A DNA stretch of 64,000 bases. It comes from Eledone cirrhosa. Lineage: Eukaryota. The first letter of the stretch is position 1. The number at the start of each line of letters is the position of its first letter. Positions 7,811-61,617 of this stretch are shown here, piece after piece. A program made the translations under genes and the position numbers. The stretch covers positions 51,956,001 through 52,020,000 of the forward strand of contig OZ024748.1 of NCBI GenBank assembly GCA_964016885.1, read 5' to 3'. The notes below the pieces were generated by a model, which saw only the letters and a list, made by a program, of their open reading frames with translations, was not told where the DNA came from and did not search any database.

Positions 7811-8260
7811 TTGGGGAGGGTCATATTGTTATAATATTGCCAGAAATAATAACAGAACACACTCACTGTTTGGTTGGTTTTTGCTTCTGTATCTTTTATA
7901 TCTCCATAGTTAATTTATTTAAAAATAAAAATGGTGTAGATATTACAGTACAATACAATAGGGGGAAACATAATAGTACCACTGATGATGTTGCAGATGT
8001 GCAACGAAAGAACTTTGATAGACTATATAAATATATTTATATCTGTATTTTTAACCGCTGATCAATCAATGATAAACATTGATTGCCAAATAAATTAGCT
8101 ATGGAGATATAAAAGATACAGAAGCGAAAACCAACCAAACAATGAGTGTGTTCCGTAATTATTTCTGGCAATATTACAACAATATGACCCTCCCCAAGTA
8201 TAACACTATTTGTATTGAAACACGATTTCGTATCAAAAGCCTTGCAAAACAAATAACAAA
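7811..8260 (+). mobile_element. Penelope-like/retrozyme terminal cassette, family P2 (inverted arms, hammerhead, ORF start MTLPKYN)
   Basis: 7811-7920 is the reverse complement of ~8088-8197; hammerhead between the arms; flanked by (TA)n. Confidence 0.7.
7973..8026 (+). ncRNA. type I hammerhead ribozyme (family P2)
   Basis: CTGATGA-T-GTTGCA(GATG)TGCAAC-GAAA-GAAC-TT; imperfect stem I ATAGTACCA/TGATAGACTAT. Confidence 0.75.
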
Positions 8261-8339
8261 TATATATATATATATATATATATATATAGTGGTGAAACAC
8301 TGGAAGGTAATATCCGTAGTGGTAGAGCACTCAGTCCAT

Positions 8340-8497
8340 GGGACGAGTTTGGTAGAAGTGGTTACACAACAGTTAGTTCACCATACCGAGAACAATTGTT
8401 TCACCTTAGCCCATTCCGAGCTGAGGATCCGCTAAGGTGAAACAATTGTTCTCAGTATGGTGAACTGTTGTGTAACCACTTCTACCAAACTCGTCCC
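8340..8497. repeat. ~67-bp inverted repeat hairpin carrying a hammerhead (family P3)
   Basis: 8340-8410 versus 8431-8497 reverse complement. Confidence 0.9.
8411..8460 (+). ncRNA. type I hammerhead ribozyme (family P3), weak stem II
   Basis: CCATTCCGAG-CTGAGGA-TCCGCTAAGGT-GAAA-CAATTG-TT-CTCAGTATGG; palindromic stem III ACAATTGT. Confidence 0.65.
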
Positions 8498-8543
8498 CTG
8501 AGTGCGATATTAACAAATGGAAACTATATTTATAAAACCAGAT

Positions 8544-8610
8544 TTATTTTATTATACATATTTCAAGGACACCACGTTAAATTATGGTGTGCTTTCATCA
8601 GACAAAATAC
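8544..8610 (-). ncRNA. type I hammerhead ribozyme (family P1)
   Basis: Minus strand: TATTTTGT-CTGATGA-AAGCACACCA..TGGTGTCCTT-GAAA-TATGTA-TA-ATAAAATA; part of an element at ~8505-8770. Confidence 0.8.
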
Positions 8611-8805
8611 AATATAGATCAGTTTTATAAATAAATATTGACATACCCTTAAAAAATGCAACCATTACTGTTGGAAGCTCCGATTTACTCCAAATACTTG
8701 TTGAGTGCTTTATATCAGTTATAAAAATATTTGCTTGTTGTATCCCAACAATTTAAATAGAACTTTTGCATATATATATATATATATATATATATATATA
8801 TATAT

Positions 8806-9003
8806 GGCAGAACATCAGACAACATGCTTTGCAGCATATATTTATGGCCCTTTATGAACTGGGTTCAAATCTTTCCAAGATTACCTGTCTTTCACCTTTA
8901 CACGGTTGATAAAATAAATACCAGTAATGCACTGGGATCGATTTAATCAACTTTCCTATTTCGCCAAAATTGTTGGCCTTGTGCTTAAATCAGAAACCAT
9001 TAT
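8806..9003 (+). mobile_element. SINE family A
   Basis: Homologous to 921-1140. Confidence 0.8.
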
Positions 9004-9009
9004 TTCTTT

Positions 9010-9455
9010 CCCATGGAGTATGATGCAGAAGCCAGAACAGCCTGGAAAGCATTACAGTAGACAAAAGTAAAAACAAATAGAAATGAATGTATTGAGACTG
9101 ATAGCTCAAAGTTATATTAATGGAACCTAAAAATAAAAACTGCCATCACATTAAAACACAACTGACCTGGTTTGTTGTTTGGTACCAAAGATTAAAAACA
9201 TGGTATGTAGTAGAGGCCAGCAGCTCTCTTGATGTGAATGTAGAAAATAAAATAAAAGAGAAGGAAGATATCTTTGAACCATTGATGAGGAATTTGCAGA
9301 TTCAATTCCAAAAATATACTTCAGTTTCATATACATTATTAATGAAGCTACAGGATATAAACCAACCAGCCTGGAAGAAGTTATGACTGAACTTGGATTC
9401 TTGCAGAAAGAGAAAGAACAGAGCTCTTTAATTCATAAACTATTAAATGGCTGAA
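9010..9455 (+). pseudogene. fossil restriction-like endonuclease (RLE) domain of an R2-superfamily (R4/Dong/NeSL-like) non-LTR retrotransposon
   Basis: Across frameshifts: LY*WNLKIKTAITLKHN*P / VVWYQRLKTWYVVEASSSLDVNVENKIKEKEDIFEPLMRNLQ / FSFIYIINEATGYKPTSLEEVMTELGF, matching the RLE pattern HNRPD..W..(Y)xxE..D..KxxEK..Y..L..PIIxGAxG. Confidence 0.7.
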
Positions 9456-9565
9456 CGATTGTATGAGGGAGGATGGAATTTTCTTTTACATTACTAGTTT
9501 GCCACTGGAAAGGGGGTGGATCAAAATAAACTCAAAATTAAAATAAAAGATATATATATATATAT

Positions 9566-9620
9566 ATAGTCTTTCAAAGTTCTTTTCTCACACACTTGTG
9601 ACATCATCAGTGATACTGTT
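9566..9620 (-). ncRNA. type I hammerhead ribozyme (family P2), inverted partner
   Basis: Minus strand: AGTATCA-CTGATGA-TGTCACA(AGTG)TGTGA-GAAAA-GAAC-TT-TGAAAGACT. Confidence 0.65.
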
Positions 9621-9664
9621 ATGTTTCCTCCCATTGTATTACGGCAATACAACAGCAAGAAACA

Positions 9665-9718
9665 TAATAGTATCACTAATGATGTCACAGGTGTGTGATG
9701 AAAGAACTGAGAGACTAT
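9665..9718 (+). ncRNA. degenerate hammerhead (family P2; CTAATGA core)
   Basis: TAGTATCA-CTAATGA-TGTCACA(GGTG)TGTGAT-GAAA-GAAC; followed by the P2 body and MTLPKYN start at ~9922. Confidence 0.55.
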
Positions 9719-9948
9719 ATATATATATATATATTTATAAAACAAACTTTATATATATAAGTATTCATATCTATATTTTTAACTGTCGGTTAATCAATGA
9801 TAAACATTTATTGCCTGCTAAATTAATTAAAGGGATATAAAATATATTAAAGCGAAAACCAACTCAAATCAAACAGTGAGTGTGTTTTTTTTTTATATAT
9901 TTCTGGCAATATTATAACAATATGACCCTCCCCAAATATAACAATATT

Positions 9949-59224: not shown

Positions 59225-59465
59225 TTATAAGTAGGGATGAGGTATCAAATTATCATTAAGTTTATTCAGGTATGACGTGTTTCACGATTGATCAGCTCAA
59301 GGTTCGACCTCATCTGACTTCTGATAACAGAAGTCTAATGAGCTTTATTCCACAGTCGTGCCCGATCGATAGAGATTGAACCTTCAGCTGATCAACTGCG
59401 AAACGCATGTCACACCTGAATAAACTTAATGATAATTTGACACCTCATCTCTACTTATCATTACT
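59225..59465. repeat. inverted-repeat cassette with hammerhead 3' halves (family P7)
   Basis: 59227-59305 versus 59378-59458; GAAA-CGCATG-TC and GAAA-CACG-TC. Confidence 0.7.
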
Positions 59466-59725
59466 ATATATAGTATTAATAGTTTGGTAAAGATATCAAA
59501 GGTGAAGAGCACCCAGTCCAAGGGATATGTTTTAATATATTATTAAATCCAATACTACACTGAAGACATAACATGAAGAAATGCAACAATACTATGTTGA
59601 ATAAGTTGGATTCACTGAACGAAACGTGTCCTAGTATTTCTCTGCATTATCTCTTTGTTGTACTATTGAATTTAATAATGTGTGTGTGTGTGCGTGTGCG
59701 TGTGCGTGTGTGTGTGTGTTTTTTG

Positions 59726-59870
59726 AAATAAAAGGAAAGCACAAGCGAGGGCTAATCCCTTCTTGAGTTACCTGCTGGAGTTCATGGATATTTCAAAGCA
59801 TTTGTCCGTGACCTCCAACAGACAACTGAAGAAGGGATTGTCCCCTGCTTGTGCTTTCCTTTTATTTTTC
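59726..59870. repeat. ~60-bp-arm inverted repeat
   Basis: AAATAAAAGGAAAGCACAAGC...GCTTGTGCTTTCCTTTTATTT. Confidence 0.8.
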
Positions 59871-59899
59871 AATACACTTTATCAAGTAACCACACATAT

Positions 59900-60228
59900 A
59901 CATGGCTTAGTGGTTTGAGCATTGGCCTTGCAATCGAAAGGTTGTGAGTTCAATTCTCAGACTGGGTGATGTGTGTTTCCTTGAGCAAGACACTTTATTT
60001 CACATTGCTCCAGTTTACTCAGCTGTAGAAATGAGATGATAGAGACTGGGGTCCATATCATCCACTACAAAGTGGTCGTGGAGGTGCCACGCCAAAAAAG
60101 CACCCAGCACTCACTGTAAATGAGGTTGGTGTTAGGAAGGGCATCCAGCTGTAGAAATCAAGCCAAAATCAGTTCCCGTCCCACCCTTGCAAGCAGGGAA
60201 AAAGCGGACGTAAAATGAAATGAATGAT
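59900..60228 (+). mobile_element. SINE family B
   Basis: Homology to 11947-12292. Confidence 0.9.
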
Positions 60229-60299
60229 ATATATATATTATATATATATTATATATATATATTATATATATAATTTATATATATATTATATATATATAT

Positions 60300-60619
60300 G
60301 GAGGTACATGGCTTAGTGGTTAGAGCATTGGCCTTGCAATCGAAAGATTGTGAGTTCAATTCTCAGACCAGATGATGTGTTGTTTCCTTGAGCAAGACAC
60401 TTTATTTCACATTGCTCCAGTTTACTCAGCTGTAGAAATGAGATGATAGGGACTGGGGTCCCAGTCCCTATCATTCCACTGCAAAGTGGTCGTGCCACGG
60501 AAAAAAGCACCCAGCACTCACTGTAAATGAGGTTGGTGTTAGGAAGGGCATCCAGCTGTAGAAATCAAGCCAGAATCAGTTCCCTGCAAGCAGGGAAATG
60601 TGGACGTAAAATGATGATA
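60300..60619 (+). mobile_element. SINE family B
   Basis: Homology to 11947-12292. Confidence 0.9.
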
Positions 60620-60654
60620 TATATATTATATATATATATATATATATATATATA

Positions 60655-60885
60655 GGCAGCGAATTGGTCGTTAGGACATTGGAGAGAATTCTTTATGGTA
60701 TTCATTCCACCTCTTTGCACGTTCTGAGTTCAAATCCCACCAAGATCAACTTTACCTTTCATCCTTTTGAGGTCAATAAAAAAATATCAGTCCAGTACTG
60801 GGTCGATTCTTCCTCTATAGAAAAAATCGGCTGCATTTAAATCTGTAAAGGGTTGGGCTCCGCCAGGTTTAAAAGTGCCCTAGAT
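60655..60885 (+). mobile_element. family A-type SINE head with alternative tail
   Basis: Tail ..CTCCGCCAGGTTTAAAAGTGCCC shared with ~6945-7090. Confidence 0.6.
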
Positions 60886-61121
60886 ATGCCATATGACAAT
60901 GCCCAAACAACTCCATAAGGAGTTATGGGATCTTTATTCTTATATATATATATAGTCCCACCCTTGCAAGCTGGGAAAAGCAGACGTAAAATGATGATGA
61001 TGATGATGATGATATTATATATATATATACATATATGTATATATCATCGTTTTTATGTCTGTTTTTCCATGCTTACTTGGGTTAAGGGACTAGAACTGTT
61101 TCATTTGTATAAAAAAAGCAA

Positions 61122-61173
61122 GACATCCCTGATGATTTGACACTAATGAAACAGTTCTAGTCCTGTAGAAGTC
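61122..61173 (+). ncRNA. type I hammerhead ribozyme (family P8)
   Basis: GACATCC-CTGATGA-TTTGACACTAAT-GAAA-CAG(TTCTAGTC)CTG-TA-GAAGTC; stem II weak. Confidence 0.65.
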
Positions 61174-61319
61174 ATTTCTACATAAAATAAATATGCTTAT
61201 TTTATACTAATGTACTCAATACCTTATCTGTAGTTATTTCCTGATTCTCTTTGGGATACCATCCTTAATTTCATATATATATATGGTATATATATATATG
61301 TGTGTGTGAGTGTGAGTCC

Positions 61320-61617
61320 CAGGTTCAATCAGGGGTAACCACACTAAGTAAGGTACTCAATGCATAGAGTATATACAAGATTTAATATAGAAATGGCTTC
61401 TACGGGACTAGAACTGTTTTATTCAACGTAAATCATCAGGAAAGCCCTAGTTCTAGTCCTGAAGAAGCCATTTTTATATTAAATCTTGGGTATACTCTAT
61501 GTATTGAGTACCTTACTTACTGTGGATACCCCCTGATTGAACAGGCTTTCCTGTTGTTCCTTTGATTTGAACAGTTCTAGTCCTGTAGAAGCCATTTCTA
61601 TATTAAATCTTGTATAC
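61320..61617. mobile_element. family P8 cassette: one inverted and two tandem hammerhead-bearing units
   Basis: Minus-strand hammerhead at 61395-61446 (GAAA mutated to AAAA); + units at 61449-61541 and 61544-61617. Confidence 0.7.

Follow-up and report, generated by a model that had tools for sequence, protein, structure and literature searches.

Minimal hammerhead ribozymes are a described component of Penelope-like elements (PLEs), and solo copies as well as opposite-strand pairs 100-700 bp apart have been regarded as probably truncated PLEs (Cervera and de la Pena, 2014; PMC4209133). An inverted arm, an optional tail of 50-100 nucleotides (nt) and targeting of (TA)n are published PLE traits (Craig et al., 2021; PMC8557442), and the supplement of that paper contains Hydra-1_Obim from Octopus bimaculoides, which combines a (TA)n preference with a hammerhead. 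In vitro the reverse transcriptase (RT) of a Poseidon element uses two internal priming sites and AT-rich targets, and hammerhead cleavage is not needed (Frangieh et al., 2024; PMC11167929). For Octopus vulgaris 31 recently active Penelope-like families are reported in a paper whose accessible text does not use the word ribozyme (PMC13282606). Our literature search for hammerheads in cephalopods yielded only the papers cited here; subscription papers were outside the coverage of this and all further literature searches. Here we examine hammerhead-bearing cassettes in 64,000 nt from Eledone cirrhosa (GCA_964016885.1, contig OZ024748.1, positions 51,956,001 to 52,020,000, forward strand), the whole of which is called the window. 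It is AT-rich, with many (TA)n tracts, open reading frames (ORFs) for RTs of LINEs (long interspersed nuclear elements) as well as tRNA-like heads of short interspersed nuclear elements (SINEs).

An earlier note, made from the sequence alone, had described in it a dense, multi-family collection of type I hammerheads and had read it as a radiation of non-autonomous ribozyme retroelements. We arrive at a different picture, to which we assign a probability of about 85%: the cassettes are short, often fold-back end-pieces of the pseudo-long terminal repeats (pseudo-LTRs) of several PLE families, whose ORFs are elsewhere in the genome and whose proteins likely inserted them at (TA)n; by prediction, the hammerheads need a dimer or a helping protein in order to cut. 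We read them as Penelope pseudo-LTRs because six of eight families are linked to PLE ORFs, each family has two fixed 3' ends, 5' ends are variable and dinucleotide repeats flank the copies.

Hammerhead motifs in the window

At all 12 sites named earlier CUGANGA is followed, 11-36 nt on, by a purine-rich GAAA box. They were scored with a descriptor comprising the core, a helix I of ≥4 bp, a helix II of ≥2 bp with one unpaired nt tolerated per end, and a palindromic or hairpin helix III. The descriptor was loosened twice after inspection of the window (4, 6 and finally 8 matches) and is thus tuned to its motifs. Eight of the 12 passed (cores 7982+, 8421+, 8601-, 15022+, 21869+, 25075-, 35687- and 59000-). 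At 9610- the G12 region is mutated, at 21773- the 5' strand of helix I is missing at the fold-back junction, at 26856+ helix I is broken in the window copy (CCGU/ACGG in relatives), and at 61129+ helix I has mismatches. About a dozen intact cores had been claimed; this holds for the CUGANGA and GAAA-type boxes and fails for these four motifs. The inverted partial duplications ascribed to the cassettes were seen, and so was the adjacency to (TA)n: a tract of (TA)5 or longer lies within 200 nt of 11 of the 12 cores, compared with 41% of other positions, the sites being non-independent.

Could AT-rich, repetitive DNA generate such motifs by chance? The tuning of the descriptor speaks for this, as do weak folding z-scores of monomers (-2.2 to +1.0, ten motifs folded) and the outcome of Rfam, which at gathering threshold found no hammerhead in the window (sole match, a tRNA-like SINE head at 60303-60370). 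Against it, 100 local dinucleotide shuffles of the window gave a mean of 0.05 and a maximum of one match versus the eight observed. In 52 independent stretches the same descriptor found 48 matches versus 0-1 in five shuffles. Helix III is palindromic and stems carry compensatory changes. Elsewhere in the genome RF00163 matched 18 of 74 scored candidates. Of the checks proposed earlier, the shuffles came out in favour of the hammerheads, and Rfam failed in the window and succeeded outside it. Chance has a practically negligible probability; the hammerhead motifs in the window are real. An Rfam scan of the window by E-value was discarded since among the matches listed (150 of 901) those to microsatellites dominated.

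The compensatory changes reside in an alignment of ten copies of families A, A2 and B. There, 90.8% of cells are paired and four pairs change on both sides, so that the proposed check for stem covariation was positive; the covariation score was reached by 0 of 500 shuffles. Helix III self-complementarity was 0.82 versus 0.38 for random in 15 recurrent types. Because these types were picked without a palindrome rule and the A/A2/B alignment contains two-sided changes, the structural support is less circular than the descriptor. On structure, these are type I hammerheads in pseudo-LTRs; self-cleavage is predicted. They resemble the minimal PLE hammerheads in the extra nucleotide after A9, the short helix I, the palindromic or absent helix III, the solo copies, the opposite-strand pairs and a U3-A8 core variant (PMC4209133).

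Linkage to Penelope-like ORFs

The 12 motifs represent eight families, all dispersed, which bears out the multi-family claim. Seven DNA queries covering six families returned 828-3,583 first-look candidates each; copies of B and C2 were gathered from loci retrieved for other families. Six families (A, B, C, C2, D and E) are each located directly downstream of, or inverted against, a PLE ORF encoding RT and a GIY-YIG endonuclease. Thus, the genome-wide search for linked ORFs which the earlier note had suggested was successful for six of eight families. Domains and clades were assigned by motifs read by eye against PMC8557442; the ORFs appear to be of the Hydra type for C, C2 and D and of the Neptune/Nematis type for A, B and E.

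Family C (cores 8601, 15022, 21773 and 21869) flanks an intact ORF of 742 amino acids (aa) in locus L137. The order there is inverted 5' copy, pseudo-LTR, tail, ORF, long 3' untranslated region (UTR), pseudo-LTR, (TA)n. In 14 of 20 loci selected by this ORF, family C was at most 1.5 kb away. The protein contains DKT, RWR, YRDD, a CxCX5C linker, and CxxC/CxH around a conserved E and N. Family C shares with Hydra-clade PLEs a C-terminal GIY-YIG domain, DKT, an RW-basic motif, YRDD, the CxCX5C linker, CxxC/CxH round the conserved E and N, a hammerhead near the 3' end and (TA)n (Craig et al., 2021); the Hydra-1_Obim protein has the same series of motifs by eye. It differs in a unit of ~4.3 kb with a 3' UTR of ~1.8 kb, the published ones being generally <3 kb (PMC8557442), in RWR instead of the published RWK, and in its very high copy number. 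Family C2 is ORF-linked in L245 and L229, and family D lies downstream of a Hydra-type endonuclease in L290 and L242. The ORF pieces linked to D have the first or last Cys of the CxCX5C linker altered and are 5'-truncated, the DKT/RWK region being outside the pieces. A broken Hydra-type RT-endonuclease piece, ~80% identical to the family C protein, was seen 8.6-10 kb beyond the window end (L143:8615-9998).

Family A (7982, 9610) flanks an ORF of 1,206 aa in L130 which starts inside the tail. An A-type pseudo-LTR is present at 18 of 20 loci selected by the L130 RT, and ORF pieces are upstream of at least 8 of 30 family A copies. The window itself contains such ORF starts: tblastn with the L130 ORF located the first 24 codons at 8184-8255 (71% identity), and the first 28 codons are at 25163-25246 in a family B tail. 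The earlier statement that no PLE ORF is visible is therefore correct for RT and endonuclease and incorrect for ORF starts. Family B is found downstream of A-related ORFs in L244 and L246, and family E downstream of RT plus GIY-YIG in three of eight extended loci; both E domains we take to be Neptune-like. In A/B and in E a CX2-5CxxC linker and a CCHH in the endonuclease are present. A/B have in common with Neptune/Nematis a YVDD RT, a CX4CxxC linker, a GIY-YIG domain with Cys/His placed as in CCHH and an ORF start in the pseudo-LTR tail; they differ by the 1,206-aa length of the ORF, a long Asn-rich insert and DKS for DKG. Young A-type elements in L128-L133 have intact ORFs >1,000 aa with an Asn-rich insert of ~170 aa and often form long inverted pairs. 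One element protein has its best named relative in Octopus vulgaris (68% identity); another has named relatives in Argonauta hians.

L137 and L130 both have the organization of an endonuclease-containing (EN+) PLE, i.e. a single ORF with RT and C-terminal GIY-YIG domain, assigned from motifs, between flanking pseudo-LTRs. For the six linked families a radiation of non-autonomous elements is hence unsupported; A and C even flank full-length intact ORFs. The majority of the cassettes represent stubs left by autonomous PLE families, and by-products of this sort are known. Family E seemed linked in L274 and family F in L229 and L306; we discarded these cases as insertions lying side by side. For family J no ORF link was found.

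Several points weigh against this assignment. With Pfam, two ORF fragments matched RVT_1 below threshold, and the full ORFs had no relevant match. The clade calls are motif readings by eye in which Neptune and Nematis are not told apart. For family C3 an ORF within 1.5 kb occurred in 0 of 20 loci, and F/F' had no ORF link among the top-scoring copies. ORF linkage indicates origin and does not prove that every short copy derives from a full-length RNA; short RNAs from a solo pseudo-LTR could also serve as templates in trans. Few independent events, from about three subfamilies, underlie the A/B covariation, and nine of ten motifs fold as monomers no more stably than shuffles.

Insertion anatomy

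The PLE-related features of the window are as follows (strand is omitted where a feature has none as a whole).
7810-8260, plus: family A fold-back with (TA)n on either side; the inverted arm (~7810-7925) is tailless and the main arm, which reaches 8260, is tailed; Neptune/Nematis-type PLE pseudo-LTR.
7973-8021, plus: minimal type I hammerhead with its core at 7982 and a cut predicted after 8015; one C.A mismatch in helix I.
8184-8255, plus: first 24 codons of the family A ORF within the tail (the tblastn match above).
8289-8505: family D fold-back, Hydra-type pseudo-LTR; minus arm with tail and tail hairpin (8327-8348, minus); plus arm with core 8421, predicted cut after 8450.
8505-8770: family C; hammerhead on the minus arm (core 8601, cut predicted at 8553) and, on the plus strand, a piece of tail (8684-8770) that contains hairpin 8687-8708.
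9569-9945: family A (A2 subfamily) fold-back; degenerate hammerheads (core 9610, minus), 3' piece.
12331-12512, plus: family A 3' fragment without hammerhead.
14502-14608: family J fragment; inverted tail and hammerhead 3' half; U3-A8 core variant in longer copies.
14952-15121, plus: family C subfamily copy; core 15022, predicted cut after 15071.
21589-21965: family C fold-back, Hydra-clade pseudo-LTR; a tail (hairpin 21651-21669) and the truncated hammerhead 21773 are on the minus arm, the intact 21869 on the tailless plus arm.
24888-25245: family B fold-back; minus arm core 25075; plus-arm tail encoding the first 28 codons of the A-type ORF (25163-25246).
26339-26428, plus: family E degenerate copy.
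26840-27080, plus: family C3 copy; core 26856, helix I broken; in a relative (L326) the tail folds into a GCUC/GAGC hairpin; no ORF link was found.
35595-35780 (limits approximate), minus: family C2 copy; core 35687, predicted cut 35633; Hydra-type pseudo-LTR.
58880-59100 (limits approximate), minus: family E copy; minimal hammerhead core 59000, AACGUU junction, predicted cut 58973; Neptune-type pseudo-LTR.
59215-59460 (limits approximate): family H degenerate fold-back with mutated core.
59726-59867: family G degenerate fold-back, half motif only.
61087-61262, plus: family F' copy; core 61129, helix I mismatched, short inverted arm.
61323-61619: family F fold-back cluster; core 61439 (minus), G12 mutated; tail hairpins 61353-61370 (minus) and 61494-61511 (plus); candidate non-autonomous element of ~135 nt.

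In all eight families tested (A, B, C, C2, D, E, F and J) the 3' ends are bimodal, the two ends being 50-100 nt apart (family E, ~15 nt). A dinucleotide repeat directly follows 68-96% of copies, depending on the family; pooled for TA, CA and CT the counts are 73/84 for C, 65/70 for D and 27/31 for C2. Fold-back pairs usually have a tail on one arm only, as in the window at 7810-8260 and 21589-21965, and an inverted 5'-truncated copy beside the upstream end was observed. The 5' ends are variable. Those of family C cluster 90-110 nt before the cut site, and some copies of A, B, C, C2, D and E continue 5' into the 3' UTR and ORF. In these respects the earlier note is supported, namely in its connection to Penelope, in the type I hammerheads whose helix III is palindromic, in the inverted insertions truncated at their 5' side and in a preference for TA.

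A genomic footprint of cleavage in vivo was considered and dropped, because in no family did 5' ends pile up at the predicted cut. After removal of duplicate overlapping loci, 4 of 69 family C copies began there (-4 to +2); in family B 0 of 32 5' ends were within 16 nt, and in A, D, E and F they were spread broadly without a cluster at this position.

By analogy to the anole Poseidon element (PMC11167929), insertion may proceed as follows. The GIY-YIG domain would nick AT-rich DNA. Two priming sites, 50-100 nt from each other, would be available to the RT within the element RNA, and whichever it uses would decide whether the copy has a tail. Inverted pairs with a single tailed arm would arise where both strands of the target are primed. 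Solo pseudo-LTR stubs would be what remains if copying ends early or comes to the 5' end of the RNA in the leading pseudo-LTR. Hammerhead cleavage is likely unnecessary for making insertions. The Poseidon element PAc from Anolis is similar in having two fixed 3' ends which give rise to a tail, AT-rich targets and no ends at the cut site (Frangieh et al., 2024). Drosophila Penelope has an intron which ends at helix I (PMC4209133). Family C3 (26840-26856) has, 10 nt ahead of its core, the AG end of a U-rich tract that resembles a 3' splice site, and some family F copies begin after AG.

Non-LTR retrozymes offer another explanation, i.e. tandem repeats of 200-350 nt from which hammerhead-cut monomers circularize and re-insert. 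Like the present cassettes retrozymes are non-coding, carry type I hammerheads in units of similar size and are related to pseudo-LTRs (Cervera and de la Pena, 2020, PMC7229834; Li et al., 2026); in a 2026 preprint the origin of vertebrate retrozymes is placed in PLE pseudo-LTRs (Li et al., 2026; 10.64898/2026.07.22.740005). Yet retrozymes are head-to-tail tandem repeats, and the copies here are solo or inverted pairs with PLE tails. Between 7,000 and 31,000 of the window no tandem array with a hammerhead turned up, copies next to each other are for the most part inverted rather than head-to-tail, 3' ends are fixed while 5' ends do not accumulate at the cut site, and six families are ORF-linked. 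A retrozyme identity, which the earlier note had brought up, is accordingly very improbable. Fold-back stubs of PLEs, if transcribed, would constitute a large source of double-stranded RNA.

Abundance across the genome

The independent sample consisted of 52 stretches of 10 kb at evenly spaced round positions, 28 on the four largest contigs and 24 on others, excluding unplaced contigs. Motif density was 0.92 per 10 kb (bootstrap 0.60-1.29), or about one motif per 11 kb. The window, with 1.25 per 10 kb, is inside this interval; consequently, it is not a hammerhead hotspot, and the density noted earlier is nothing special. Scaled to a genome of 3.0 Gb the density corresponds to ~2.8 x 10^5 motifs (bootstrap 1.8-3.9 x 10^5). 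PLE ORF pieces were present in 14 of the 52 stretches and occupied 22.4 of 520 kb (about 4%). Published counts are ~9,000 for Xenopus and ~4,000 for coelacanth (PMC4209133), and the largest per-genome count which we located is 126,247 hammerheads in axolotl (PMC7229834). Our ~2.8 x 10^5 in 3.0 Gb is higher, with the proviso that descriptors differ and counts are not strictly comparable. What is encountered here is PLE biology of an ordinary type at an unusually high abundance.

Family J is very common in the retrieved loci and also occurs in the window at 27095-27142; its window copies are 5'-truncated. A long copy (L176:2277-2385) has a type I hammerhead of the U3-A8 variant with a long helix II and a full hairpin as helix III, and folding as a monomer is predicted. 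An estimate of the abundance of U3-A8 variants (5 in 520 kb versus 0-2 in shuffles) was too weak and was dropped.

A tail hairpin in Hydra-type elements

The interest of this genome rests on its very high copy number, a candidate minimal element, family F, and a hairpin in the tails. The latter is present in C, C2, D, F and J and consists of ACUC, a variable stem-loop, in most cases a 2-nt bulge, and GAGU; it starts 0-10 nt past the no-tail end. The C3 relative folds a GCUC/GAGC form. The hairpin is absent from A (0/23), B (0/11) and E (0/19). Matches similar to the J tail hairpin are at 34915-34940 (plus) and 52282-52307 (minus) of the window, and 13170-13400 is a probable Hydra-type end in which a degenerate GAAA...UA junction precedes a tail hairpin at 13341-13367.

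We surveyed 78 loci from metagenomes in which a relative of the family C protein is encoded; 48 were distinct, with a detectable hammerhead and enough flank, and the other 30 were dropped. GCUC...GAGC occurred 33-57 nt after the cut site in 38 of the 48 loci versus 1.9 expected from shuffles. When a 2-nt bulge was imposed, the three pairs that follow formed in 36, 33 and 28 of these 38 loci versus 27.2, 20.1 and 15.5 after permutation (0 of 5,000 each; relatedness uncontrolled). Alternative hairpin registers did not show this pattern and reached a best p of 0.013. An antisense scan, which also gave 38/48, is uninformative because the anchor motif is self-complementary, and G.U versus A.C counts (7 versus 5) discriminate neither RNA from single-stranded DNA nor the strand.

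The same hairpin is visible in published Hydra consensuses, namely Hydra-1_Ajap and the entry preceding Hydra-1_Obim. The words hairpin and stem-loop are absent from the main text of PMC8557442, and the literature search yielded nothing further on a Hydra tail stem-loop. Thus, a covarying hairpin (RCUC, stem-loop, 2-nt bulge, GAGY) between the two 3' ends of Hydra-type PLEs looks new. It likely helps to position the start of copying, probably as the protein-binding site which would set the two priming points. PAc differs in that its priming takes place in an AC-rich stem-loop within the ORF. The hairpin of the Hydra type is located upstream of the ATG, and its consensus, shared clade-wide, is another one. 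How PLEs select two internal priming sites and generate inverted insertions has been assayed solely in one Poseidon element (PMC11167929). With the hairpin and intact 742-aa ORFs in the same genome, the choice of the priming site is directly testable by mutation and compensatory rescue.

Family F as a candidate minimal element

Family F/F' (61129 and 61439, at 61.1-61.6 kb) is ~135 nt long. With fold-back arms masked, 0 of 115 F/F' arms had common sequence 5' of the hammerhead; 30 tail-selected loci, 18 off-target matches and 30 F' loci all start within ~10 nt of the core or inside the element. The Hydra-type hairpin is present in 20 of 38 family F copies. We place the fixed 5' end of F about 47 nt ahead of the cut site. 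Among the top-scoring copies F/F' is thus of fixed short length, non-coding and possesses its own ends, as expected of a non-autonomous element, and it may truly be one. For F/F' the earlier non-autonomous reading fits, in contrast to the six ORF-linked families; C3 is without ORF link, yet several copies have ≥300 nt of common 5' flank. This non-extending family looks new, as does the tail hairpin. Non-autonomous hammerhead PLE derivatives in molluscs were not found beyond the cited papers; the supplements of Li et al. (2026) and PMC13282606 may list related families. If true, a 135-nt element of hammerhead and hairpin would define the minimal cis-requirements for mobilization of PLEs in trans.

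This raises the question whether many short copies are mini-elements which propagate themselves, i.e. solo pseudo-LTRs with their own promoter, copied in trans by a PLE protein. F/F' is the clearest case by virtue of its uniform starts and its hairpin, and the clustered 5' ends of family C point in the same direction. Against this, an autonomous partner which starts transcription just upstream of the hammerhead and has rare long copies would give the same picture for F, as top-scoring copies were sampled (per search, the 40 best out of 1,460-3,583 candidates), and a share of A, B, C, C2, D and E copies extends into the 3' UTR and ORF. We consider mini-elements a serious possibility, at somewhat less than even odds, and retain PLE end-pieces as the preferred reading of the cassettes. 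More tentative still, and in our view rather doubtful when taken as a whole, is a combined model: a clade-wide hairpin (RCUC, a 3-5 bp variable stem-loop, a 2-nt 3' bulge, GAGY-RCU) would be bound by a dimeric RT-endonuclease and set the flanking priming sites, thus giving rise to one-armed tails; family F would be a 135-nt parasite of hammerhead and hairpin, and the hammerhead count of the host (about 2-4 x 10^5) would exceed any printed genome count which we located.

Other features of the window

Family I comprises related fold-back fragments at 25640-26010 and 14700-14960, the former with degenerate cores and a ACCUUAGGU junction. LINE RT ORF pieces are located at 43216-45117 (minus), 47509-49539 (plus; Pfam RVT_1, E 1.8e-31), 3137-3706 and 13810-14463. 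A compound (TA)/(TATG)/(TACA) microsatellite extends over several kilobases at 35800-42600 and 45300-54000 and contains 0 passing hammerheads. A young tRNA-headed SINE family with copies 88-95% identical adjoins (TA)n at 11953-12263, 58544-58843, 59900-60211 and 60303-60607.

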